A DNA stretch of 64,000 nucleotides, taken from contig JAQYDL010000033.1 of assembly GCA_028724165.1 (NCBI GenBank), forward strand, positions 30,283 to 94,282, given 5' to 3'. The translations under genes and the position numbers were made by a program. This DNA is from Prevotellaceae bacterium. GTDB taxonomy: Bacteria; Bacteroidota; Bacteroidia; Bacteroidales; Bacteroidaceae. The notes under the pieces were generated by a model. That model did not search any database, was not told the DNA's origin, and was given only the letters and a program-made list of their open reading frames with translations. Shown piece by piece: positions 1-56,952 of this stretch; positions within the stretch are counted from its first letter, which is position 1, and the number at the start of each line of letters is the position of its first letter.

Positions 1-321
1 AAGAATCACCATAACCGGAGCTATCATATAAGCCACGCGGTCGGTGTTCTTCAAGAAAATAATTTCCTTTGTAAGCATTTTGAACACATCAGAGAACACC
101 TGCAAAAGTCCCCATTTACCAACACGATTAGGTCCGATACGGCATTGGAAGAATGCACATATTTTGCGTTCAAAATAGATAAGGAATATCGCAAATAGGG
201 CGTAGAGAGTAATTACTATCAACGCCACGGCAACGCACTCCACAAGGATTGCTCCCCATGCGGGAAGCACCGAACGCAAGAGTCCGTCAAACCAATTTGT
301 TATTATACTAAAGTCAAACAT
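1..321 (-). CDS. nuoH: NADH-quinone oxidoreductase subunit H, N-terminal part (runs off the window start)
   Basis: My own translation of the minus strand from the ATG (rc at 319-321) gives MFDFSIITNWFDGLLRSVLPAWGAILVECVAVALIVITLYALFAIFLIYFERKICAFFQCRIGPNRVGKWGLLQVFSD... This is the hydrophobic NuoH/ND1 N-terminus with the R.GPN.VG motif. It lies directly downstream of nuoA-B-CD. Confidence 0.85.
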   Translation of the reverse strand, partial: MFDFSIITNWFDGLLRSVLPAWGAILVECVAVALIVITLYALFAIFLIYFERKICAFFQCRIGPNRVGKWGLLQVFSDVFKMLTKEIIFLKNTDRVAYMIAPVMVIL

Positions 322-345
322 ATCCGTTTTGTATGGTTTAACATG

Positions 346-1923
346 TTAGCGATCGATGTCGGGCACCACATAGTCGAGTGTTCCGCCAATTGAAATGAGA
401 TCGGCGATTTTCTCTCCACGGCAAGCCTCGTCCATTATAGCCACCAACGGAAGTCCTGTGGCACGATAGTGCAAACGATAAGGAGACTTGTCGCCGTGGC
501 TCTCAAGGAACACACCGAAGCGTCCGCGCGAAGCCTCCACAGCATTATAATATGTACCCTCCGGCACTTTTATAATGGGTTTCATCTTTTCGCGATAGTT
601 TCCTTCCGGAATATTGTCTATAAGTTGCTCAATGATTGAAAGACTCTCGAGAATTTCACGCAAACGCACTATGAGACGTGCATAACTGTCGCCGTCTTCA
701 AGCACAATTTCATTGAAATTCACACGGTCGTAAGCTCCATAAGGTTCAAGTTTGCGCACATCGTTGTGCCAACCTGCAGCGCGTCCGCTACCTCCGGTGC
801 AACCATAAGATATAACCTGCTCTTTCGTGAGAGTTCCCACTCCGTCAAGACGATTATGGGCAATCACATTGTCAGCAAAAATATCATAGTATTCCTGAAT
901 GTTCTTACGCATCAGAACAATGAAATCTTTCACACGTTTCTGGAAATTGGGATGCAGGTCATACTGCACGCCGCCAATCATATTGTAGTTTATGATAAGG
1001 CGTCCGCCGCAAGTTTCCTCGAAAATGTCGAGAATCTTCTCGCGATCACGGAAAGCGTAAAGGAATGCCGTGGTCGCACCCAAGTCCTGGCAAAGACAGC
1101 CAAAGAACAGCAAGTGGGAGTCGATACGCTGAAGTTCGTCCATTATGGTACGAATAACTTTTACGCGATCGCTCACTTCAACGCCCATAGCCTGCTCTAT
1201 GCAGGCGCAAAGAGCGTGGCGGCTCTGCTGTGCAGAAATATAATCAAGACGATCTGTGAGCGCAAGAGTCTGAGGATAAGTCATAGACTCGTTGAGTTTC
1301 TCCACACCGCGATGAATATACCCGAGCACGGGGTCAATTCTCTTTATAAGTTCACCGTCCAAAGCCACACGGAAATGCAGCACACCATGAGTAGAAGGAT
1401 GCTGCGGACCGATGTTCACCACATAATCGTCGTCATCAAAAATCACATTTTCCTTAACCTTCAAAGTTCCGTCGGGCAGAAGCTCATATTCCTTTGTGGT
1501 ATCGGCAAGTGGTTCGTTGGTCATATGTTGGGCATCGAAAGGATTCTCCTTTATCGGGTCGTCATCCTTACGCATGGGGTATCCCACCCAATCTTCACGC
1601 AAATAAATGCGGCGCATGTCGGGATGTCCTGCAAAGATTATCCCGTAGAAATCATACACCTCACGCTCATAAATATTGGCAATGTCCCAAAGATCGCTCG
1701 CCGTGGGAATCACAGGATTCACGCGGTCAGTTGTGGAACAGCGCAGATTTTCGCGTTTTCCGGTAGATGTGGAATAAAGCATGTAAACCACGCCGAGACC
1801 ACCCTCTTCTCCCCAGTCCATACCTATGAGATTCTCGAGAAAGTCCATTTTCTCCACATCACGCAAGCGAAGAAGTTCAGCCTTCAGCTGTGAAGGCTCT
1901 ACAGTTCTTATGTCAAGTTTCAT
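346..1923 (-). CDS. nuoCD: NADH-quinone oxidoreductase, fused subunit C/D
   Basis: 525-aa ORF. The N-terminal part is NuoC-like (EREVYDFYGIIFAGHPDMRRI). The C-terminal part is NuoD-like (NIGPQHPSTHGVLHF, LTDRLDY, RATGLP). It overlaps the nuoB stop by 4 nt. Confidence 0.95.
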   Translation of the reverse strand: MKLDIRTVEPSQLKAELLRLRDVEKMDFLENLIGMDWGEEGGLGVVYMLYSTSTGKRENLRCSTTDRVNPVIPTASDLWDIANIYEREVYDFYGIIFAGHPDMRRIYLREDWVGYPMRKDDDPIKENPFDAQHMTNEPLADTTKEYELLPDGTLKVKENVIFDDDDYVVNIGPQHPSTHGVLHFRVALDGELIKRIDPVLGYIHRGVEKLNESMTYPQTLALTDRLDYISAQQSRHALCACIEQAMGVEVSDRVKVIRTIMDELQRIDSHLLFFGCLCQDLGATTAFLYAFRDREKILDIFEETCGGRLIINYNMIGGVQYDLHPNFQKRVKDFIVLMRKNIQEYYDIFADNVIAHNRLDGVGTLTKEQVISYGCTGGSGRAAGWHNDVRKLEPYGAYDRVNFNEIVLEDGDSYARLIVRLREILESLSIIEQLIDNIPEGNYREKMKPIIKVPEGTYYNAVEASRGRFGVFLESHGDKSPYRLHYRATGLPLVAIMDEACRGEKIADLISIGGTLDYVVPDIDR

Positions 1924-2516
1924 GCCTTATCCTCCTTAGGTCTTTTTTGTTTGCGGTTGGTTGTTCCGAAGAAATTCTCAACTTTCACGATGCGCTGCAA
2001 TTGCATCATTCCGTAGAGGAAACTTTCGGGGCGCGGCGGACATCCCGGAACATAAACGTCAACGGGAATCACCTGGTCCACACCCTGCACCACATGATAG
2101 CTCTTAGTAAAAGGACCACCGGAAATAGAGCAGCCGCCAATGGCAACAACATATTTCGGATCGGCCATTTCATCGTAGAGACGCTTCAACACAGGTGCCA
2201 TCTTGGTTGTGATGGTGCCGCACACAAGAATAACATCGGCCTGACGCGGACTGTTGCGCGTTACCTCAAAGCCAAAGCGGGCAATGTCGTAACGAGCGGC
2301 GCACACAGCCATAAACTCGATACCGCAGCAACTTGTGGCAAAAGTCAAAGGCCACAAAGAATTACTGCGTCCCCAGTCTATAAGGTCGTCCAACGGTTTA
2401 ACCAAAACATTAACGCCGCCGGCGTTAAGTTCCGCAACTAATTTCTCGTAAGTCTCGTTGTCCTTGAAATCCTTGTAAGGCACAGACTTGATTTTGGCAC
2501 GTTTTTTTATTTCCAT
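1920..2516 (-). CDS. nuoB: NADH-quinone oxidoreductase subunit B
   Basis: Carries the cluster N2 Cys motifs SCCGIEFMA, GGCSISGGPF and PGCPPRPE. The start is taken at MEIKKRAK (2516). The ORF-track extension to 2627 would overlap nuoA and has no homology-like sequence. Confidence 0.93.
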   Translation of the reverse strand: MEIKKRAKIKSVPYKDFKDNETYEKLVAELNAGGVNVLVKPLDDLIDWGRSNSLWPLTFATSCCGIEFMAVCAARYDIARFGFEVTRNSPRQADVILVCGTITTKMAPVLKRLYDEMADPKYVVAIGGCSISGGPFTKSYHVVQGVDQVIPVDVYVPGCPPRPESFLYGMMQLQRIVKVENFFGTTNRKQKRPKEDKA

Positions 2517-2857
2517 TCCAACGCTCCTTTCCGCCAGGCGTAAGCCAAGCCTAACACTAAGATGAACAAGAAAAACAATACGCTGACTATTCCCACTCCT
2601 CCGAGAGTGCGGAGCACTACCGCCCACGGAAAGAGAAACATCGTTTCTACATCAAACATCAGGAAAAGGATGGCGTAAAGATAATAACCTATACGAAATT
2701 GCATCCACGTCCTTCCGCGTGTGGGAATACCGCATTCGTAAGGCTCTTCCTTCTGGGCATTGTACGACCTCGGAGCGATAAGCACTGCTATCGTAACAAC
2801 CAAAGGCACGAACAACAACCCCGTAAGGGCAGCCGTTACAAGCATGGTGAAGTTCAT
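2507..2857 (-). CDS. nuoA: NADH-quinone oxidoreductase subunit A
   Basis: 116 aa with three TM segments and the YECG motif (EPYECGIP), followed by FDVE. It is the first gene of the nuo operon. Confidence 0.92.
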   Translation of the reverse strand: MNFTMLVTAALTGLLFVPLVVTIAVLIAPRSYNAQKEEPYECGIPTRGRTWMQFRIGYYLYAILFLMFDVETMFLFPWAVVLRTLGGVGIVSVLFFLFILVLGLAYAWRKGALEWK

Positions 2858-2909
2858 TGTAAAGTATATTAATTATTTATTAATTGTGAAAACTAGTTTT
2901 TAGCGGTTG

Positions 2910-2917
2910 CAAAGGTA
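2910..2917 (-). promoter_or_regulatory. Bacteroides-type -7 box (TAccTTTG) for the nuo operon
   Basis: The rc of caaaggta is TACCTTTG, matching the Bacteroidetes sigma-A -7 consensus TAnnTTTG. It lies 53 nt upstream of the nuoA ATG. Confidence 0.55.
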
Positions 2918-3356
2918 ATAATAATCATTAAAAAACACAGCGTTGCCTCCCGTGTTTTTGCACATACCATGTGCCAAACGTTTCCTTTTGCCATAAACCA
3001 CACGACATCCGTCATGTTTTTGATATTTCCGGCTGAAAAGCAACATCCTGCCCGCCGAACAAAAACGACACTCCCTCCCCGCAAAAAGACATCACACGCC
3101 ATTACCCGGCATACACTCCACGATACAAATATGACGAGCAAATTTTTTACCGCAGCAAACACATTTGCCCCGGTAAACGCAACAAACATTCAATTTCTCC
3201 TTGATTTTTCGTACAAATCCGAGTATCGCCATGCACATACAGGCACCCGAAAGCAGACATTATATATATTAATGAGTATGCCCGCTTATCTTCAACCTCG
3301 AAACGCATTATTATCTCGTTATACGAGCAAAAAACCCGACGGTTCGGAGCATTTTT

Positions 3357-3500
3357 AGAGTTTTTGTGAGTTGATGCATATTTGCTTATTGGGAAGCCGA
3401 AAAAATACAAGCCATATATTTTGAAATAAGTGCCTTGTATTTTAAAATATATGGCTTGTATTTTTTGCGATTTCCCTTGTCTTTCGAACTCTTTGATATT
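3357..3500 (-). repeat. Composite palindromic intergenic element, copy 1 (units 3400-3466, arms on both sides)
   Basis: Units are aaaaaatacaagccatatatttt / gaaataagtgccttgtatttt / aaaatatatggcttgtatttttt. The left arm is tttttagagtttttgtgagttgatgc... The right arm is degenerate (gcgatttcccttgtctttcgaactctttg). Confidence 0.85.
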
Positions 3501-3654
3501 TAAGAAGATAAAGAACGCGAAAAATATGGCGCAAAAGGCAGGCGTGAGGCGGTGTTTTTTACGTTTCCCGTCCGATGTTTCTTTGTGTCGGGATTTTATT
3601 GCAAATAATTCGATTTTCTTCAAACCTATGCCGCCAAATGGCGCAGCATTGGCG

Positions 3655-3662
3655 TATCTTTG
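3655..3662 (+). promoter_or_regulatory. -7 box TAtcTTTG upstream of the WYL gene
   Basis: TATCTTTG lies 44 nt upstream of the ATG at 3706. Confidence 0.5.
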
Positions 3663-3705
3663 CCTCAGAAATTTACGCTTGTGATGCGTAGCAAACAGTT
3701 TTACA

Positions 3706-4641
3706 ATGGTTGATAACGACAGAGGGCAGAGCCTGATGAGTAAATACGTGTGGGTGATTGAAACCATTTTTCGTGCCGGAAAGATTTCTTTCAGAGAGTT
3801 GAACGAGAAGTGGCTCAACGCAGACATTTCACGGGGTGTGGACATTCCGAAACGCACTTTCGACAATTGGCGCTGCGCCATTTGGGACGTTTTCGGCATT
3901 GAAATAGCCAACGAAAACCGTGGCGAATACCGATATTACCTTTCCAACGCAGAAGACATAAGCAAAAACGGTATGCGTTCGTGGCTTTACAACTCTTTTT
4001 GCGTTAGCAACACATTAGCCAACAGTCAGAGCATAAAAGATCGCATAGTTTTGGAATACGTTCCCTCGGGTCAGGAATATCTGCAGCCCATTGTTGAAGC
4101 CATGAAAGAGAATCGCGTCCTAAATATCACGTATCACAGTTATTGGAAAGACGAGGAGAACAATTTCGACGTGCAACCTTTCTGTATAAAACTGTTCAGA
4201 CAGCGGTGGTATCTGGTTGCACGAAGCACCTATTCATATTATTATGACCAAGGACCGAGAATTTATGCTCTCGACCGCATTCACAACCTCCACACCAAGG
4301 AAGAAAAGTTCGAATTGCCCAAAGGATGGAATGCAAAGGACTTCTTTGCCGGATGTTTCGGCATTGTTGCGGAACAATCGGTAAGCATTCAGCCCGTAAA
4401 GCTTAAAGTTTCGGCGGGACAGGCTAATTATATTCGCAATTTGCGGCTCCACGAATCGCAGCAAGAGGTTGAGCGCAACGAGGAATACAGCATATTCACA
4501 TATTTTCTGCGTCCCTGTTACGATTTTATTCAGGAAATTCTTTGGAACGGGGAAGACGTTGAAGTTATGGAGCCTTTATGGCTTCGCAAGGCGGTATCGG
4601 ATAAAATAAAAAGGATGTGGAATAAATACAAAGAGGATTAA
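3706..4641 (+). CDS. WYL-domain transcriptional regulator (wHTH-WYL-WCX architecture)
   Basis: The N-terminal part looks like a winged HTH (VIETIFRAGKISFRELNEKW). The central part has the WYL signature (ITYHSYWKD...FDVQPFCIKLFRQRWYLVARS). An alternative start at MSKY is at 3736. Confidence 0.85.
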   Translation: MVDNDRGQSLMSKYVWVIETIFRAGKISFRELNEKWLNADISRGVDIPKRTFDNWRCAIWDVFGIEIANENRGEYRYYLSNAEDISKNGMRSWLYNSFCVSNTLANSQSIKDRIVLEYVPSGQEYLQPIVEAMKENRVLNITYHSYWKDEENNFDVQPFCIKLFRQRWYLVARSTYSYYYDQGPRIYALDRIHNLHTKEEKFELPKGWNAKDFFAGCFGIVAEQSVSIQPVKLKVSAGQANYIRNLRLHESQQEVERNEEYSIFTYFLRPCYDFIQEILWNGEDVEVMEPLWLRKAVSDKIKRMWNKYKED

Positions 4642-4643
4642 GC

Positions 4644-5135
4644 ATGAAAAATTTTGCTGCCATAGATTTTGAAACTGCCAACAACGAACGAAGTTCGGTG
4701 TGCAGTGTCGGCATCGTAATAGTTAAAAACGGCGAGATTGCCGATTCTTTTTATTCCCTCATCCTTCCCGAGCCGAACTATTACAATTATTGGTGCTGCC
4801 AGGTGCATGGTCTCGGACACAACGACACGGATAACGCCCCGATATTCCCGGAAGTTTGGAAACAGATAGAACCTCTTATCAAAGGGTTGCCTCTGGTGGC
4901 TCACAACAAGCTTTTTGACGAAGGGTGTTTGAAGGCTGTTTTCCGCGTTTATCAAATGGAATATCCCGGCTACAGGTTTTACGACACACTGCAGGCATCG
5001 CGGCGCAAACTGCGAGAGCTGCCCAACCACCAACTCCAGACTGTGGCAGAAGCCTGCGTCTACAAATTGGAAAACCATCACCACGCGCTGGCTGACGCAG
5101 AGGCTTGCGCATGGATAGCGAGGGAAATATTGTAA
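4644..5135 (+). CDS. DEDDh-family 3'-5' exonuclease (DnaQ/epsilon-like, single domain)
   Basis: Exo I is AIDFETAN, Exo II is VAHNKLFDEGCL, and Exo III is HHALADAEACA (H-x4-D). The start is 2 nt after the WYL gene stop. Confidence 0.88.
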   Translation: MKNFAAIDFETANNERSSVCSVGIVIVKNGEIADSFYSLILPEPNYYNYWCCQVHGLGHNDTDNAPIFPEVWKQIEPLIKGLPLVAHNKLFDEGCLKAVFRVYQMEYPGYRFYDTLQASRRKLRELPNHQLQTVAEACVYKLENHHHALADAEACAWIAREIL

Positions 5136-5227
5136 ACCGCAAGCCATTGCTTCTATGTGCCAACCGTCTTTCCGATATGCCTTACCCGACAAAAAATGAA
5201 AACAGTCCGCAAGTACACTCCCACCCC

Positions 5228-5743
5228 ATGAACAAAAAAATAATATTCCTTGATTTCGACGGCGTTCTCAACACAGAACATTATCAAAACCTGCTTTACT
5301 ACCAGGGCAAGACAGGTAGCGACAAATACGGCACACTGTTCGACCCCGAAGCAGTGGAACAGTTGAAAAGAATTATAGACGCAACCCATGCCGAAATAGT
5401 CATTGAATCGTCATGGAAGTGTCTCGGTTTGAACTTTCTGCGCGAAATGTGGGAAGCACGAAGCATGCCGGGATGGATAATCGGCATCACGCCGGCGGCG
5501 GCAGGCGACAGCTGGTTACTGTCAGTCGATTTGAACGAAACAGACCCGGCAACAGCTCCCAGCAAAGGCTTGGAAATAGCCTCATGGCTGTCAGACCACG
5601 CTACCCGAAGCACACGATACGTAATAATCGACGATGAGTTTGTGATACTCGAAGCTCAGCGAAAGCACTTTCTCATGACAGATTCATACAACGGCATCAC
5701 CGAAGAATTGGCAAACAGAGCCATTGCCATTCTTAACGGTTAA
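5228..5743 (+). CDS. Small stand-alone HAD-superfamily phosphatase-like protein
   Basis: The start is taken at MNKKIIFLDFDGVLNTEHY, which holds the DxD nucleophile motif. Later motifs are VIESSWK and YVIIDDE. The ORF-track N-terminal extension from 5105 overlaps the exonuclease gene. Confidence 0.75.
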   Translation: MNKKIIFLDFDGVLNTEHYQNLLYYQGKTGSDKYGTLFDPEAVEQLKRIIDATHAEIVIESSWKCLGLNFLREMWEARSMPGWIIGITPAAAGDSWLLSVDLNETDPATAPSKGLEIASWLSDHATRSTRYVIIDDEFVILEAQRKHFLMTDSYNGITEELANRAIAILNG

Positions 5744-5804: not shown

Positions 5805-5920
5805 TCTTAAAAACAACTACTTATAATCGCGAAAAATACAAGGCACTTATTTTAAAATAAGTGCCTTGTGTTTTAAAATATATGGCTTGTATTTTTTACA
5901 ACAAGCCATGTGTGTTTTTT
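5805..5920 (+). repeat. Composite palindromic intergenic element, copy 2
   Basis: gaaaaatacaaggcacttatttt / aaaataagtgccttgtgtttt / aaaatatatggcttgtatttttt / acaacaagccatgtgtgtttttt. The left flank is atypical (cttaaaaacaactacttat). Confidence 0.85.
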
Positions 5921-6043: not shown

Positions 6044-9928
<3,885 letters not shown>

Positions 9929-9965
9929 CGAAAGCGTTAAGTCATAAAAACTTATAGAACAAACC

Positions 9966-10014
9966 GCCCTGCCCGATGCTTTGGTTTTAAGCCGCACCGG
10001 GCAGGGTTTTCTTT
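9966..10014 (+). terminator. Probable rho-independent terminator after the GH2 gene
   Basis: Stem ccctgcccg / cgggcaggg with a 22-nt loop, followed by ttttctttt. Confidence 0.5.
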
Positions 10015-10060
10015 TCATCCCGCCGATTTCATAAGTATCCCGCGAAAACGTAGAAAAAAC

Positions 10061-10723
10061 ATGAAAATATCAGAAATCAAAAGCGAACTGCTATCAACAT
10101 TAAAGCCATACGTCTCGAGCCAAGGCTTCAAAGTAAACAAAACACAGTTTTGTCTTAAAAGAGATGACGAAAACAATGAATGCCAATTCTCTTTTGACTA
10201 CAACTCGTGGGGTGATGAAATTCACATATTCCCTTATGTTCAAATAAGAAACAAAAAGATTCATTCCATTTGCGAAACCTGCGATTTTCATCTTAACTAT
10301 ACGGCATTCATAAACCTTTTGGTGCTTAAAAAGATTTACGACGGAACTTTTACAGAGGACACAAAATGGAAAATGCAGTATGACAGACAGGACAGGTTCG
10401 TTATTTTTGACAACAGCGATATGGAAAAAGCCAAAGCAGAGCTTATAAAACTATTGCCTATGGGACTGAAATATTTCCATGACCATGACGACATTTACGC
10501 CATAGACAAAATGTATAACACGCCCCCTTTGAACAAACAAAATCCCAACAGCTCCGGTTTTGACACCCAATGTGTCATAGGCTTAATCTCTGCAAAATTG
10601 GCACACAACGGCAATTATGAGCAAATCAGCAGTTTATACTCAAGCCTCATACAGTCAGAAGACGTGCTGCAAGACACAAGAAACAAGTTTGAACGCATTA
10701 AAAATTTAATCGAAACGCTATAA
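10061..10723 (+). CDS. Hypothetical protein, AT-rich orphan (possibly immunity-protein-like/DUF4304-like)
   Basis: 220-aa ORF that is visibly more AT-rich than its neighbours. It has no signal peptide or TM segment. The N-terminal pattern L..LKPYV.S.GFKVNK..F.LKR resembles small cytoplasmic immunity-type proteins. The family call is tentative. Confidence 0.6.
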   Translation: MKISEIKSELLSTLKPYVSSQGFKVNKTQFCLKRDDENNECQFSFDYNSWGDEIHIFPYVQIRNKKIHSICETCDFHLNYTAFINLLVLKKIYDGTFTEDTKWKMQYDRQDRFVIFDNSDMEKAKAELIKLLPMGLKYFHDHDDIYAIDKMYNTPPLNKQNPNSSGFDTQCVIGLISAKLAHNGNYEQISSLYSSLIQSEDVLQDTRNKFERIKNLIETL

Positions 10724-10967: not shown

Positions 10968-11128
10968 GAGGGTTTGTGAGGGCATTTCGCCTCACCGGAA
11001 AAAGCATAAGGCACTTCGCAAAAAACATAAGCCATATATTTTAAAATACAAGGCACTTATTTTAAAATAAGTGCCTTGTATTTTTCAGTTTTCCAAGAAG
11101 CTGATTAACAGCAACTCACAAAAGCCCT
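10968..11128 (-). repeat. Composite palindromic intergenic element, copy 3 (with inverted arms)
   Basis: Units are at 10998-11085. The left end gagggtttgtgag (10968-10980) is inverted relative to the right end ctcacaaaagccct (11115-11128). Confidence 0.85.
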
Positions 11129-11156: not shown

Positions 11157-11576
11157 TGCTCGTAAAACACCACGTATTCTTCGCCAAACACACTTTGTTA
11201 CTTGCCAAACAACATTCATTTCTTACCAAACAGACTTAATCCCTCGCAAAACCACATTTTTCAATTATTTACAAAACTACATTCCCCGCAACTCCATCTT
11301 TACCACTCATAATACAGCATTTTTAATTCAACAAACTACATTTACCCAATATCATACTACATTCACCCCTTACACAACTACCTTTATCTATCACAAAGAA
11401 ATATCTATACTTTACCAAACACAATACAACCATTATCCAACAACCCTTACCCATTACGAAACCCACTTCGTCCCACACCCAACTACATTCATCCCTTAAC
11501 CAACTACATTCCTCCTTTACACAACTACCTTTATCCCTTACACAACTACCTTTATCCCTTAACAAACAGACTGCAT
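11157..11576. repeat. Tandem array of twenty 21-nt units, G-depleted on the + strand
   Basis: Hand alignment places a unit every 21 nt from 11157 to 11556 with no indel. Examples are cccttacacaactacctttat (11367 and 11535; 11514 differs at one base), cccttaaccaactacattcct, cccacacccaactacattcat and tacttgccaaacaacattcat. There are about 14 G in 420 nt. Confidence 0.9.
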
Positions 11577-13884: not shown

Positions 13885-16041
13885 TTATTCCTTTACCACT
13901 TTCCAAGCAGCTTTTCCTTTATATGTTGTTTTTTCCGACTTATATCCGGGGGCAACGTAATTGGTATGTTCGCCATCGGCATCATTATCGGCCGGATTGA
14001 ATCCCACAAAAATTCCGCCATAAACATTAATGGAGCAAACCGAAGTGGTTCCATCTTTTCTATTAAGCAGATATTTCGGATTTGCAGCCTCGAATACTCC
14101 TCCGTATATATTGCAAACGGAATGAAGTTTACCGTCATTGCTGTCCACATATATACATGCATTTGGTTTTCCGTTTACATCGAGTCCGGTATAGAAGTAT
14201 CCGCTGTAAATATTAGCAGTACCTGAATTAACGAAAACGGCATTGTTTACGATACTACCTTCACCTCCGTTAACCTCTACATTGCCAAAGATATTCAGCA
14301 CACCCTTTTCGGCTGTCAATGCACATGTTCCGATTTGTGTTGAAGTATTATTGCTTGCGCCGATAATCTTTCCGTTACCATATACATCAAGTTGTCCGCC
14401 TTTTACAACCTTTATTGCAGAAATTCTGTTTTGGGTTGATTTCAATTCCGCGCCTTTTTCCACGGTGAGGGTTGCTTTTTTGCCCAACGTGGTGTACTTG
14501 TTTACTTCCACATTACTGCTTACCACGATGTTATTCCCCGTTGTTTTGAAAGCATTTAGCAAATCGTCATTAGTTGCAGCCACTGCGTCTGCTTTCTTCA
14601 CCGTCCAGGCTTCCTTACCATTGTAAGTTGTCTTTACAGATACGTAACCGGGAGCAACGAAATTGGTGTGTTCGCCCTCGGCATAGTTGTCGGCAGGATT
14701 GAAATTGACAAATGTTCCGCCGGTTACTATAATCTTTGCCGTACCTGCTTTTCTGTTTGCATCATAACAGTTGAGCACGAACTCATCTTCCTTGCCGACT
14801 TGTGAATACTTCTGTTGAACTTCAAAAACTCCGCCTTCTATTTCGGCAGTACCCTCATATACATACACTGCATGGATGTTGCCGTTATAGTGTCCGCCTT
14901 TTATCACAAGGTGACCGCCGTCCTGCACGTCAACCGGGAAGCAGTCGTTCTCTTTTGCTATCACGTCGCCCTCACCTTCGAGAACGAGCGTTCCGCCTTG
15001 GACACTGAACAAGGACCACTGGTATTTGCTTTCATCCCAAAGGTCGTTGTTGTTCTTCAGTGCCTTTCCGTTCAGATTAGCCACGAGACTTTTTCCCTGA
15101 GGTACGATTACATTAGACGTGAAGTCCATACCTTCGCCGACTTTAATCATACCACCGTTTTTGGCAGCTGCCTTAAATTCGTCGAAAGAGTTTATTTCGG
15201 TTTTCTCTATAGTGCCCGTATAACCCATGTAAATTGGCGGCATTACAATCCAGTCGCATCTCTTTACGGTGTTCTCGGCTTCGCTCGAAAGGCTGTCCAC
15301 TACAGTTCCGTTGTTCTTTATATATATTGTACATCCATTGTACACACCAACCGGAACAGGCATGTAAAAATGTATTTCCTTTGTATCGGAGGTAAGTTCG
15401 AATTTGAAAGAAACTTCGTCAGCCACGTTTTCTTTTGCCGAAACATAGGGATTGCTCTTGTCGGTAGCGTCTACTTCGAAATCGCCACTGACGCCGCTGT
15501 TCATTTTCACCGTAAATTCATCGATATATGCCGGAACTTCAACATCCCATTCTATTACGCCGCCCACATGACGGAAAAGGAATTGATGTTCATTCTTTTC
15601 GAAATAAGCAACCATGGGATCGCTCACGCTCATACTGTCTTTGTTGTAATCGGTATTGTAGTTTTTGTAAACGTTCGGGTAGCTAACCGTCAGTTTTCCG
15701 TCGGCATAGCTTTTTGCTGCCTTAACGGGGAAAACTGCCACGTCGGTGGGTTTGCCACCTACCGAACTGCCGTAATTCGCCACGTCGGTGCCTGCACCGC
15801 CTACCATTTTCAATGTGCCGAACCCTACAGACTCGCTGCCTTTGGTGAGATAAGCGGCAATATCATCGCCTTGCTCCCATTTGAATGCGCCGTGCGAGTC
15901 GCTATAAGAGCGAGACGCCACGCCTTTTTCCACTACGGCGGAATATTCGCCGTTTTGTTTTGCCAGAAACTGCTCGTCCTGGCTGCAACCTGCCAATGCT
16001 GCAACTCCAAGTCCTATCAGGACTACATTCAGTTTGTTCAT
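13885..16041 (-). CDS. Cell-surface lipoprotein: fimbrillin-like N-terminal region plus two duplicated beta-helix-like modules
   Basis: Lipobox LAGCSQ. The N-terminal ~270 aa resemble Bacteroidales fimbrillin-like proteins (DPMVAYF...FLFRHVGGVIEW). Two ~200-aa modules end in near-identical tails: FNPADNYAEGEHTNFVAPGYVSVKTTYNGKEAWTVKK and FNPADNDADGEHTNYVAPGYKSEKTTYKGKAAWKVVKE. Confidence 0.8.
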   Translation of the reverse strand: MNKLNVVLIGLGVAALAGCSQDEQFLAKQNGEYSAVVEKGVASRSYSDSHGAFKWEQGDDIAAYLTKGSESVGFGTLKMVGGAGTDVANYGSSVGGKPTDVAVFPVKAAKSYADGKLTVSYPNVYKNYNTDYNKDSMSVSDPMVAYFEKNEHQFLFRHVGGVIEWDVEVPAYIDEFTVKMNSGVSGDFEVDATDKSNPYVSAKENVADEVSFKFELTSDTKEIHFYMPVPVGVYNGCTIYIKNNGTVVDSLSSEAENTVKRCDWIVMPPIYMGYTGTIEKTEINSFDEFKAAAKNGGMIKVGEGMDFTSNVIVPQGKSLVANLNGKALKNNNDLWDESKYQWSLFSVQGGTLVLEGEGDVIAKENDCFPVDVQDGGHLVIKGGHYNGNIHAVYVYEGTAEIEGGVFEVQQKYSQVGKEDEFVLNCYDANRKAGTAKIIVTGGTFVNFNPADNYAEGEHTNFVAPGYVSVKTTYNGKEAWTVKKADAVAATNDDLLNAFKTTGNNIVVSSNVEVNKYTTLGKKATLTVEKGAELKSTQNRISAIKVVKGGQLDVYGNGKIIGASNNTSTQIGTCALTAEKGVLNIFGNVEVNGGEGSIVNNAVFVNSGTANIYSGYFYTGLDVNGKPNACIYVDSNDGKLHSVCNIYGGVFEAANPKYLLNRKDGTTSVCSINVYGGIFVGFNPADNDADGEHTNYVAPGYKSEKTTYKGKAAWKVVKE

Positions 16042-18068: not shown

Positions 18069-18190
18069 GAAAAAACACATGGCTTATCGCAAAAAATACA
18101 AGCCATATATTTTAAAATACAAGGCACTTATTTTAAAATAAGTGCCTTGTATTTTTCGCGCTGTCAAACATCTGATAAACAGCAACTTAT
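18069..18190 (-). repeat. Composite palindromic intergenic element, copy 4
   Basis: gaaaaaacacatggcttatcgc / aaaaaatacaagccatatatttt / aaaatacaaggcacttatttt / aaaataagtgccttgtattttt, then arm cgcgctgtcaaacatctgataaacagcaactt. Confidence 0.9.
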
Positions 18191-21848: not shown

Positions 21849-21970
21849 GAAAAAACACATGGCTTATCGTAAAAAACATAAGGCACTTATTTTAAAACAA
21901 GTGCCTTGTATTTTAAAATATATGGCTTGTATTTTTTGCCTTTCCAAATGCCTGAAAAACAAGAACCTGC
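21849..21970 (-). repeat. Composite palindromic intergenic element, copy 5
   Basis: gaaaaaacacatggcttatcgt / aaaaaacataaggcacttatttt / aaaacaagtgccttgtatttt / aaaatatatggcttgtatttttt, then arm gcctttccaaatgcctgaaaaacaagaacc. Confidence 0.9.
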
Positions 21971-23380: not shown

Positions 23381-23500
23381 AGTTATTGTTTTCCAGACAT
23401 TTGAAAAGGCGAAAAATATAAGGCACTTATTTCAAAACATAAGGCACATATTTTAAAATATATGCCTTGTATTTTTTACAACAAGCCATGTGTGTTTTTC
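23381..23500 (+). repeat. Composite palindromic intergenic element, copy 6
   Basis: Arm agttattgttttccagacatttgaaaaggcg, then aaaaatataaggcacttatttc / aaaacataaggcacatatttt / aaaatatatgccttgtatttttt / acaacaagccatgtgtgttttt. Confidence 0.9.
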
Positions 23501-23605
23501 AACGTCCCGCAACAGGAGAAAAACGACGACTCGGATGCGATTTTCAAGGGCATTCCCGACAAAGGCGATACGACCCGCAAATGAGAGAACGCATGTACAT
23601 ACCGC

Positions 23606-26215: not shown

Positions 26216-26348
26216 GTAATTTCAGCCTTGACGAAAGTTTGTTTGCCCATAAAAATTGCTTAAAGCCATGCGAATAAGCATTTGCGTTCGAAAAATGATT
26301 ACCGGCATGACAATAAACAGAAGAAAAAAGTGAAGTTTCGGGACATGT

Positions 26349-26470
26349 GAAAAAACACATGGCTTGTTGCGAAAAACATAAGGCATATATTTTAAAATAC
26401 AAGGCACTTATTTTAAAATAAGTGCCTTGTATTTTTTGCCTTTCCAAATCCCTGAACCACAACAACTTAC
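26349..26470 (-). repeat. Composite palindromic intergenic element, copy 7
   Basis: gaaaaaacacatggcttgttgc / gaaaaacataaggcatatatttt / aaaatacaaggcacttatttt / aaaataagtgccttgtatttttt, then arm gcctttccaaatccctgaaccacaacaactt. Confidence 0.9.
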
Positions 26471-33220: not shown

Positions 33221-33340
33221 AAGTTCTTGTGTTTCAGACATTTGAAAAGGTCAAAAATATAAGGCACATATTTTAAAATAAGTGCCTTGTATTTTAAAAT
33301 ACATGGCTTGTATTTTTTGCGATAAGCCATGTGTTTTTTC
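33221..33340 (+). repeat. Composite palindromic intergenic element, copy 8
   Basis: Arm aagttcttgtgtttcagacatttgaaaaggtc, then aaaaatataaggcacatatttt / aaaataagtgccttgtatttt / aaaatacatggcttgtatttttt / gcgataagccatgtgtttttt. Confidence 0.9.
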
Positions 33341-36902: not shown

Positions 36903-37170
36903 CCGTAGCACCTTACTAATGACACATACCCCATATTTCCCATGACGGATGTATTCTACATCAAACGGCAAGGTACTTAACTTGGGGGTACATCAACATG
37001 TTTAGGAACTTTCCTTTCGCATTTTTCCGCATACCGCATATAGCATAACACTTTTAAGAGACCTGTAAAAATGAGAGTATGTGAAGGCTAACAACGTGCC
37101 GTTTTCAGACACCGCTTCCCTCAAAAAATTCAACGCTTTCAAGACCTGTTTTTACAGACATGGGATGTAA

Positions 37171-37265
37171 GAAAAAACATAAGGCACATATTTTAAAATA
37201 CAAGGCACTTATTTTAAAATAAGTGCCTTGTATTTTTCGGCATTCCAACTGTCTGAAATCCAATA
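37171..37265 (-). repeat. Composite palindromic intergenic element, copy 9 (no fourth unit)
   Basis: gaaaaaacataaggcacatatttt / aaaatacaaggcacttatttt / aaaataagtgccttgtattttt, then arm cggcattccaactgtctgaaatcc. Confidence 0.88.
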
Positions 37266-43989: not shown

Positions 43990-44110
43990 TTTTCAGATGT
44001 TTGAAAACGTCAAAAATACAAGGCATATATTTTAAAATACAAGGCACTTATTTTAAAATATGTGCCTTATGTTTTTTACGATAAGCCATGTGTGTTTTTT
44101 GCACAATACA
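43990..44110 (+). repeat. Composite palindromic intergenic element, copy 10
   Basis: Arm aagttgctgtttttcagatgtttgaaaacgtc, then aaaaatacaaggcatatatttt / aaaatacaaggcacttatttt / aaaatatgtgccttatgtttttt / acgataagccatgtgtgtttttt. Confidence 0.9.
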
Positions 44111-49147: not shown

Positions 49148-49238
49148 TTGTTTTTCAAGCACTTAACACGCTCAAAAATACAAGGCACTTATTTTAAAAC
49201 ATAAGGCACATATTTTAAAATAAGTGCCTTGTATTTTT
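49148..49238 (+). repeat. Composite palindromic intergenic element, copy 11 (no fourth unit)
   Basis: Arm ttgtttttcaagcacttaacacgctc, then aaaaatacaaggcacttatttt / aaaacataaggcacatatttt / aaaataagtgccttgtattttt. Confidence 0.88.
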
Positions 49239-49382
49239 CATTACATGCGGAAAGCTTCCGAAACATTCCGCAAACAACTTCGTTATAGCGTCATGTATGA
49301 GTCCCAAAACGGGAAAGCATGTTTTTTGTCCCGATTTAATATAAAACAACTTTTCAAATTTTCGGGAAAGGAATAATATAAT

Positions 49383-56207: not shown

Positions 56208-56584
56208 CGGCAATCATCCGGTCTGTCGCCGGCGGAAATCAAAAATCCGCAGGAGGAAAGTCCGGGCAACACAGGACAGTCTCCTTCCGAAACGGAAGTT
56301 ATCCGCGAGGGTAAGCAAACTGTAGAAGAAAACAACCGCCCTCCGCAAGGATGGTAAGGGTGAGAAGGCGGGGTAAGAGCCCACCGGGCGCATGGTGATG
56401 TGCGTGCCGTGCAGTCGAGACGTTGAAAGTTCGCGTAAACCGGCGTTTGAGGGTTGTCCGCCCGAAACTTCGTTACGCCGGAGGGTAGAACGATAACGCC
56501 TGCAGGCAACTGCGGGCTTAGATAAATGACAGACGGCGATTCGCGAGAGTCGCGCACAGAACTTGGCTTATAGGATAATTGCCG
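56208..56584 (+). ncRNA. rnpB: RNase P RNA, bacterial type A
   Basis: Conserved regions are GGAGGAAAGTCCGGGC (56251-56266), GGGTGAGAAGGCGGGGTAAGAGCCCACC and ACAGAACTTGGCTTATAGG. The P1 stem pairs cggcaatcatcc (56208-56219) with ggataattgccg (56573-56584). Confidence 0.93.
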
Positions 56585-56593
56585 AACTCAAAT

Positions 56594-56829: not shown

Positions 56830-56952
56830 CAAAAAAACACATGGCTTATCGCGAAAAATACAAGGCACATATTTTAAAATAAGTGCCTTGTATTTTAAAA
56901 TATATGCCTTATATTTTTTGCCTTTTCAAACATCTGAAAAACAACGACTTAT
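56830..56952 (-). repeat. Composite palindromic intergenic element, copy 12
   Basis: aaaaaaacacatggcttatcgc / gaaaaatacaaggcacatatttt / aaaataagtgccttgtatttt / aaaatatatgccttatatttttt, then arm gccttttcaaacatctgaaaaacaacgactt. Confidence 0.9.

Follow-up and report, generated by a model that had tools for sequence, protein, structure and literature searches.

The window analysed here is a stretch of 64,000 nucleotides (nt) from an uncultured Prevotellaceae bacterium of human and pig gut metagenomes (contig JAQYDL010000033.1, positions 30,283 to 94,282). Towards its left end, three genes on the same strand code for a WYL-domain regulator, a DEDDh exonuclease (EXO) and a HAD phosphatase. They are preceded by an operator-like site, which we named P1, and are flanked by two copies of a dispersed repeat. 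The positions in the window are as follows.

3401..3466, + strand: repeat copy 1, a 66-nt quasi-palindromic dispersed intergenic repeat with 21-nt sub-units
3624..3648, + strand: P1 operator-like site, ACCTATGCCGCCAAATGGCG at 3624-3643, the window version of CCTCTGCCAC-N4-TGGCG
3656..3663, + strand: -7-type box TATCTTTG, matching the Bacteroides-type TAnnTTTG and starting at position 33 when 3624 is counted as 1
3706-4641, + strand: WYL regulator gene, 311 aa, probable winged helix-turn-helix (wHTH) followed by WYL-WCX
4644-5135, + strand: DEDDh exonuclease gene (EXO), 163 aa, single domain
5228-5743, + strand: HAD phosphatase gene, 171 aa, stand-alone, capless, HAD_SAK_2
5832..5918, + strand: repeat copy 2, consisting of a repeat at 5832-5897 plus an extra partial sub-unit at 5898-5918

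The EXO start follows the WYL stop codon after 2 nt and a gap of 92 nt separates EXO from the HAD gene. The open reading frame (ORF) coordinates thus bear out the three same-strand genes and the spacings given in an initial annotation made from the sequence alone, and its domain calls (WYL, DEDDh exonuclease and HAD) were confirmed by Pfam and by the motif alignments described below. The product names at NCBI are 'WYL domain-containing protein' for the first gene and '3'-5' exonuclease' for the second, with nothing more specific. Gene callers lengthen the HAD gene upstream to 210 aa; because its homologues have 170-171 aa, the ATG at 5228 is its likely start.

The regulator contains a WYL domain (PF13280; E = 1.2e-14, 54.4 bits against a cut-off of 21.8, residues 124-195) followed, in the WYL-then-WCX order, by a WCX domain (PF25583; 9.4e-9, residues 230-304), and it matches the PADLOC WYL model (2.5e-28). 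No Pfam family matched residues 1-120. The AlphaFold2 (AF2) model, which is poor as a whole (mean predicted local distance difference test score, pLDDT, of 48), gives an H-E-H-H-E-E succession for residues 10-79 with pLDDT values of 70-89, a winged-helix topology. WYL homologues numbered 3099, the best 120 being 75-80% identical, and the motif FRQRWY(L/M)VARS is invariant or nearly so, with FRQRWYLVARS as the window version. The nearest solved relatives, found with a PDB profile built from 17 homologues, are DriD (2e-7) and PafBC (3e-5), the DriD alignment covering the end of the WYL domain and the WCX domain. The WYL domains of CapW, DriD and PafBC bind single-stranded DNA (ssDNA) (PMC11662680, PMC9186387, PMC11804915), and the RQRWYLVAR motif of the window regulator appears comparable to the ssDNA-contacting RWHVR of CapW (PMC11662680).

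The exonuclease matches the Rv2179c-like family PF16473 (1.4e-20) and RNase_T (PF00929, 6.6e-19). In PDB alignments its DFE, NKLFD and HALAD segments fall on the catalytic motifs of the DinG and PolC exonuclease domains; the catalytic residues D, E, D, H and D are all present and aligned with those of DinG, PolC and epsilon, with an Exo III motif of the H-x4-D type. It scores below the curated NCBIfam cut-offs for the epsilon subunit of DNA polymerase III (PRK06195, 135.6 against 373; TIGR00573, 68.7 against 71.5) and the chain stops at residue 163, just after Exo III, so that this identity was rejected. The PADLOC candidate PDC-S48, a protein of 411-512 aa, was also rejected, as only the N-terminal 164 of the 411 model positions match EXO (3.2e-26). 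EXO homologues fall into at least 8000 clusters, and EXO also matches phrog_192.

HAD_SAK_2 (PF18143) is the sole Pfam match of the HAD protein (1.7e-26, 93.7 bits against a gathering cut-off of 27.5). As this family is described as the 'Swiss Army Knife RNA repair' HAD, the earlier association of this HAD type with RNA repair was sustained. Motifs I-IV, among them DFDG, SSWK and IIDDE, occupy invariant columns in an alignment of 33 sequences, and the AF2 model (pLDDT 90.5) is capless. No NCBIfam family matched either, and a metabolic sugar-phosphatase, against which the initial annotation had proposed to check the protein, was discarded on these grounds. The protein matches phrog_1818 and gives 21 phage or giant-virus structural matches with Foldseek at E <= 1e-3. 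The best Foldseek matches in PDB are weak (E >= 3e-3, TM 0.4-0.55) and are the capless TIM50, CTDNEP1, MDP-1 and SCP, HADs acting on proteins or lipids; PNKP is not among them. As, in addition, no RNA ligase or kinase was found in the neighbourhoods examined of WYL loci or HAD homologues, a 3'-phosphatase of the PNKP or T4 Pnk type, or membership of an RNA-repair operon, was not supported. Among the relatives of the HAD protein are many uncharacterised phage proteins, and there is no close relative of known structure.

When one genome per species was scanned with a profile, 297 WYL loci were detected, of which the best 80 were inspected. These belong mostly to rumen or gut Prevotellaceae, some being labelled Paludibacteraceae, Muribaculaceae, Alloprevotella, Bacteroidaceae or Parabacteroides, and three genomes carry two copies. 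The WYL protein is 74-81% identical to the window copy across all 80 species loci, and an identical WYL protein is present in two different upstream flanks. EXO lies downstream of WYL on the same strand in 62 of the 70 informative species loci, directly adjacent in 41 and behind an insert of 0.4-2.5 kb in 21. The junction of adjacent pairs is frequently a 4-nt overlap, and translation of EXO is probably coupled to that of the WYL gene. No description of this WYL-exonuclease pair was found in the literature. One locus, L025 (Paludibacteraceae), has a second, divergent WYL gene (33% identity) directly upstream of the main one and a third WYL+WCX gene after a truncated DnaE (extra WYL genes at L025:2797-3708 and 9648-10568).

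The HAD gene is far less constant. It stands next to WYL-EXO in two of 45 informative species loci and is absent from the other 43, so that the trio suggested by the initial annotation is not a co-conserved unit. Homologues of HAD (60-69% identity) follow a kinase-LRR protein or adjoin Abi_2 in places that lack a WYL gene within 10 kb, and EXO itself occurs without WYL at about 80% identity; a fixed unit of three genes is thus excluded. The WYL-less EXO genes stand behind a LysR regulator in a housekeeping neighbourhood (L224-L227) or, at 82% identity, amid genes for PcfJ, PcfK, ParA, Toprim and ArdC-N (L228-L230), a setting that resembles those typical of conjugative elements. Neither setting contains a P1 motif or the P2 motif described below, and the WYL-less EXO sequences nest within the diversity of the WYL-linked ones. 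WYL therefore nearly always brings EXO, EXO does not depend on WYL, and HAD is optional.

The P1 site of the window belongs to a family with the consensus AACCTCTGCCACAGTTTGGCGTACCCTTGTCATACTTTTGCAG, which precedes the WYL start by about 56 nt in most loci and is found by a strict pattern in 57 of 77 species loci. Its flanks, CCTCTGCCAC and TGGCG, are near-invariant and the four central nucleotides vary (more than 15 variants), the core GCCA-N5-TGGC being palindromic. The promoter box of Bacteroides-type -7 regions has the consensus TAnnTTTG, and such a box follows P1 at a fixed offset, the offset in the window being that of the family consensus. The window site is the sole match of the motif in the 64 kb. 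A conserved operator-promoter at a fixed offset upstream fits the earlier suggestion that the WYL protein is the controlling sensor. Part of the window operator (3634-3647) forms a perfect 14-nt inverted repeat with WYL coding sequence at 3872-3885 (codons NWRCAIWD). None of 78 other loci shares this inverted repeat with the window, so that a second operator or RNA pairing within the WYL gene was rejected; it is probably due to chance or lineage-specific.

Larger islands contain, 2-9 kb further downstream, a second element, which we named P2 and which precedes additional genes by 55-65 nt. Its sequence is the palindrome ACCTCTGCC-N7-GGCGGAGGT, with GACCTCTGCCACCAGTTGGCGGAGGTCTTTGTTTTCTTTGCA as the consensus including the box, and it shares with P1 an offset of 36 nt to the TTTGCA core of the -7-like box. 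A metagenome scan with the P2 palindrome alone detected at least 120 loci. WYL lies upstream on the same strand at 18 of the 20 P2 sites that have more than 8 kb of upstream sequence, and this proportion drops as the available upstream sequence shrinks (8/17, 6/33 and 0/46). P2 is thus linked in cis to WYL, given the 18 of 20 long-context sites. The P2 RNA folds as a strong terminator-like hairpin (-23.3 kcal/mol) and P2 may additionally terminate the first operon; P1 does not fold in this way. Since only P2 would fold as a hairpin, the sequence common to both is better explained by recognition by a protein. P2 is the only recurrent intergenic element; no integron-like attC sites were found between cassettes, and no Rfam family matches the flanking repeats or the operator.

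The genes downstream of the related WYL loci are drawn from a common pool and are nearly all on the same strand. In the first operon they code for GmrSD pairs, McrB/McrC (McrBC), RhuM-Fic, a UDG-like protein, a PDDEXK_4 protein (PADLOC candidate PDC-S26, 3e-107) preceded by a 73-aa DUF6140 protein and, very commonly and usually in terminal position, a DrmC-like PLD nuclease of 170 aa. In some islands the latter is followed by a nucleoside deoxyribosyltransferase-like protein and then by HAD. The 73-aa DUF6140 gene was repeatedly observed ahead of effector genes (PDDEXK_4, GmrSD and others; for instance L089:12538-12759 and 14100-14321), and cassette swaps between near-identical strains are located right after it. 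In one cluster DUF6140 is fused to the exonuclease (P0330, 247 aa).

The genes downstream of P2 code for an IetA-like AAA ATPase, a MoxR-type ATPase and a series of replication or division paralogues. These include a DnaE protein of about 810-820 aa, cut after the fingers domain with its catalytic motifs intact and aligning to residues 2-787 of the 1160 residues of E. coli DnaE, a GTPase-only FtsZ of 206 aa, a DnaB_C-only protein of 218 aa, a ZapA-like protein of about 100 aa and a GyrB/ParE-like protein of 638 aa. Several conserved families lacking annotation (210, 184 and 174 aa) also lie downstream of P2. Example loci for the paralogues are L022:10013-12522, L135:3920-6400, L126:~8050, L177:9319-10000 and L217:2295-4300. 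The defence or stress setting that the initial annotation had proposed fits the GmrSD, McrBC, PDC-S26, DrmC-like PLD and IetA-like cargo of the related loci, together with the presence or absence of the locus between strains.

In every informative array the first operon ends with HAD, placed after the PLD gene or the nucleoside deoxyribosyltransferase-like gene, and a P1/P2-type element follows HAD within about 45 nt in seven of ten distinct contexts. This position indicates that HAD belongs to the same island family, as optional and swappable cargo, and since it recurs immediately behind a PLD-family nuclease, the two may plausibly act on a common nucleic-acid substrate. The window locus has neither the PLD gene nor a P2-type element after HAD and looks therefore like a reduced derivative. 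When the window was searched by tblastn with all clustered neighbour proteins, only the three genes matched and no other island-gene remnants were found. The 92-nt spacer between EXO and HAD is unlike the regions upstream of HAD in the other loci examined. As neither a TAnnTTTG box nor a P1 or P2 site lies within this spacer, HAD is probably co-transcribed with EXO.

The two repeats next to the genes were analysed together with the alleles found in other strains. They do bracket the cassette, as stated initially, but the inverted, inward-facing arms attributed to them were not upheld, since the direct alignment (92% over 66 nt) is better than the inverted one (82% over 73 nt), which exists because the element itself is quasi-palindromic. 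The repeat is present at 12 loci in the 64 kb and in 11 of the 21 intergenic gaps of at least 100 nt; with such a dispersal, bracketing by two copies has a chance of about 1 in 4 and is not specific to the cassette. The further loci are listed below.

Dispersed repeat, further loci 1 to 5: about 11020-11086, 18070-18187, 21866-21945, 23409-23513 and 26335-26456
Dispersed repeat, further loci 6 to 10: 33253-33339, 37154-37248, 44003-44100, 49174-49240 and 56832-56921

The breakpoints of strain-level deletions and rearrangements fall within this repeat or at its edge. In the empty-site allele L240, window positions 1-3415 are fused to 5901 onward, with 2,494 nt missing, and the junction is a 9-nt microhomology, ACAAGCCAT, common to the repeat sub-units (3407-3415 and 5901-5909), its right-hand copy being supplied by the partial sub-unit of repeat copy 2. 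In the allele L238, the WYL gene and the first five exonuclease codons are lost, with a junction at 3411-3426, by a deletion spanning from a 16-nt repeat stretch to near-identical codons for AIDFET. The homology of L002 to the window stops at 3400. In L002, L236, L237 and L243, which belong to the same species, the space between nuoA and the WYL promoter is taken up by a restriction-modification locus (L002:3270-7258; upstream of nuoA in L236, L237 and L243), which corresponds to an insertion at window ~3370-3400. It comprises a resolvase and a type IIG enzyme of the MmeI family, accompanied by several spare TaqI_C cassettes for target recognition. This type IIG locus looks like a phase-variable specificity shufflon.

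A check of related strains, as proposed in the initial annotation, thus found the trio present, partly deleted or absent within one species, which makes the trio accessory and the intergenic nuoA-GH2 site a small variable islet. A transposon- or MITE-like (miniature inverted-repeat transposable element) cassette was rejected, as the repeats are direct and genome-wide, the unit contains no recombinase and the empty site is joined at the 9-nt microhomology. Elsewhere in the window, a copy of the dispersed repeat adjoins 21-nt tandem repeat arrays at 11183-11565, in an 879-nt intergenic region with a GC skew of about -0.6, where a repeat of ~190 nt varies in copy number between strains. The sole Rfam match in the window is the bacterial class A RNase P RNA (56210-56586, 198 bits).

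Our best explanation, held as a whole with moderate confidence, is that wyl-exo-had is transcribed from the P1 operator-promoter (3624-3663), that it would constitute an inducible nuclease islet under a WYL regulator probably sensing ssDNA, and that it represents the minimal form of a large family of mosaic islands, exchanged horizontally, in Prevotellaceae and other rumen and gut Bacteroidales. The WYL protein, as a wHTH-WYL-WCX dimer, would bind the GCCA-N5-TGGC core of P1 and P2 and might, by analogy with DriD, PafBC and CapW, switch its state on ssDNA arising from phage attack or DNA damage. The first operon, headed by WYL-EXO, would run from P1, and further cargo would be driven from P2 as a second, palindromic operator-promoter. 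Activation would be likelier than repression, given that the site overlaps the -33 region, that its distance from the -7 box is fixed and that DriD is the nearest solved relative. EXO would be the constant enzymatic partner, most likely degrading 3'-OH ssDNA ends, and may thereby finish the breakdown of cut DNA, remove the inducing ligand as a negative feedback, or both. HAD may strip 3'-phosphates that block EXO. The initial interpretation, a WYL sensor with nucleic-acid enzymes in an accessory, defence-like setting, was in this sense right in spirit.

Several points weigh against this explanation. No phage-defence phenotype is known for any member of the island family, and the window locus contains no recognised defence effector, only EXO and HAD. 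EXO is also found without WYL, at 80-82% identity to the window copy. The poor AF2 model of the regulator goes back to a shallow alignment, and no BrxR or CapW chain was retrieved in the PDB profile search, even at E <= 10. The regulator's DNA binding and its role in transcription are inferred, from sequence and by analogy. Taken alone, the P1 match of the window is not significant, with 0.35 matches expected by chance, and it owes its weight to the conservation of the motif across loci, while the conservation of P2 may partly serve termination rather than protein binding.

The locus could also be the control unit of a response to damage of the cell's own DNA, a possible but not probable alternative, in which a DriD- or PafBC-like activator would sense ssDNA from chromosomal damage and induce a repair exonuclease and a 3'-end-cleaning phosphatase, together with a short DnaE polymerase and cell-division modulators in the larger islands. 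The nearest solved relatives, DriD and PafBC, are indeed DNA-damage activators, the operator position resembles the one in DriD promoters (PMC13004042), the DnaE, ZapA-like, GTPase-only FtsZ and DnaB_C-only proteins downstream of P2 echo didA, bapE, recJ and dnaG of the DriD regulon, and EXO also occurs in the housekeeping neighbourhood with the LysR regulator. However, strains of one species differ in whether they have the locus, the locus has been exchanged between flanks and families at 75-81% identity, its commonest cargo consists of type IV restriction and other defence-type nucleases, and none of the arrays examined contains recA, uvr or lexA-type genes. As the purpose of the islands, the sequence evidence is compatible with defence, with a self-directed damage response or with both; we lean moderately to the inducible nuclease islet and give the damage response alone a low probability. 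A wider reading, which we consider unlikely, makes the WYL-EXO pair the master module of an undescribed P1/P2 regulon, mobile among Bacteroidales and sensing ssDNA. It would co-induce two gene sets, namely restriction-type nucleases and replication or division paralogues, several of them truncated (DnaE without its clamp-binding and OB domains, GTPase-only FtsZ, C-terminal-only DnaB, ZapA-like and GyrB/ParE-like proteins). These paralogues might act as decoys for phage inhibitors or bring about a dominant-negative arrest of replication and division, and the regulon, if real, would amount to a portable DriD-like checkpoint or abortive-infection programme.

The remaining alternatives concern the coherence of the locus and its owner. 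That WYL-EXO is a unit and HAD an independent neighbour, brought adjacent by deletion of the intervening genes, appears quite unlikely. The absence of HAD from 43 of the 45 informative WYL-EXO loci, its homologues beside Abi_2 or after the kinase-LRR protein without WYL nearby and the 92-nt spacer of the window, unlike the regions upstream of HAD elsewhere, are in keeping with such independence, but the probable co-transcription with EXO, the position of HAD at the end of the first operon in all informative arrays and the P1/P2-type element that mostly follows it argue for membership of the island. Very unlikely, in our view, is that the genes are remnants or cargo serving a conjugative element or phage, in anti-defence or DNA processing, and not the host. 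The 82%-identical EXO in the PcfJ, PcfK, ParA, Toprim and ArdC-N region, the phrog_192 and phrog_1818 matches of EXO and HAD, the viral structural matches of HAD and the resolvase-linked restriction-modification locus inserted at the same site in some strains would agree with it. Against this, neither the window locus nor any of the 80 species loci is flanked by genes for an integrase, a transposase, transfer or capsids, and microhomology within a repeat found genome-wide, rather than site-specific excision, accounts for the deletion alleles. Moreover, 2.9 million viral contigs contained relatives of WYL in only four loci and no match to P2, and a phage origin of the island was rejected on this basis.

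WYL regulators are known from Proteobacteria and Actinobacteria as gatekeepers of DNA-damage regulons and of islands for phage defence. No description of a counterpart of such WYL-gated islands in Bacteroidales, which dominate gut and rumen communities, was found in the literature. P1 and P2, with the near-constant exonuclease partner, provide a handle for finding and delimiting these islands in metagenomes, help to predict which uncharacterised genes sit in an inducible stress or defence programme, and allow reporter and binding experiments to be designed in cultivable carriers, which include Segatella bryantii DSM 11371, Xylanibacter brevis ATCC 19188 and Prevotella sp. P5-108. The three-gene version of the window is a natural minimal system for asking what EXO does for the regulator.

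The locus was finally compared with known systems. The flanking 66-nt element resembles REP/BIME repeats (repetitive extragenic palindromic sequences and bacterial interspersed mosaic elements) in being short, quasi-palindromic, intergenic, highly repeated and a substrate for rearrangements, but its sequence is lineage-specific, it has no Rfam match and no associated transposase was seen. In the eukaryotic TDP1-PNKP pathway, a PLD-superfamily (HKD) enzyme leaves 3'-phosphates that a HAD-type 3'-phosphatase clears for 3'-OH-dependent enzymes. The related islands, with HAD right after PLD and a 3'-5' exonuclease in the same operon, may be similar in logic; this is an analogy only, as HAD has no sequence or structural match to PNKP and the window locus has no PLD gene.

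Among WYL-regulated systems, CapW of CBASS (PMC9122588, PMC11662680) is alike in domain architecture, in size and in an Arg-Trp motif on the ligand face (RWHVR against RQRWYLVAR), and ssDNA is the established ligand of its WYL domain (PMC11662680). It was not detected by sequence with the profile of the window regulator, it represses a single CBASS operon and it has no exonuclease partner. PafBC of mycobacteria (PMC11804915) shares WYL similarity (E = 3e-5), the ssDNA trigger and a promoter motif directly upstream of the -10 box, but it is a heterodimer or a fusion of two HTH-WYL-WCX modules and controls a large core repair regulon.

DriD of Caulobacter crescentus (PMC9186387, PMC13004042) is the nearest solved relative by sequence (E = 2e-7) and, like the proposed window regulator, a homodimeric wHTH-WYL-WCX protein. 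It has a pseudo-palindromic site with a spacer of 7 nt, which lies over the missing -35 box and keeps a fixed distance from the -10 box (PMC13004042), an arrangement matched here by the site covering the missing -35-type box at a fixed distance from the -7 box, and its targets likewise include nucleases, an exonuclease and replication and division factors. The two operator sequences are unrelated, and DriD controls dispersed chromosomal core genes, whereas the putative targets of the window family are cis-linked, strain-variable and horizontally exchanged cassettes rich in restriction-type genes.

The islands also resemble those headed by BrxR (BREX/BrxU, E. fergusonii pEFER; PMC9122601), in which a wHTH-WYL-WCX regulator of ~300 aa heads a mosaic island with a GmrSD-type enzyme. 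Similar to the arrangement of P1 and P2, BrxR has inverted-repeat operators near its own promoter and a second box inside the island, one of its two R-boxes having a single good half-site (PMC9122601). Similarity of sequence between BrxR and the window regulator was not detectable (PDB profile, E <= 10), and the BrxR operator lies downstream of the promoter, whereas the operator of the window family overlaps the -33 region upstream of the -7 box. The window family differs further by its Bacteroidales lineage and by the near-constant DEDDh exonuclease as second gene. With this apparently undescribed WYL-EXO pairing, the locus is best filed as a variant of the known type of WYL-regulated island.

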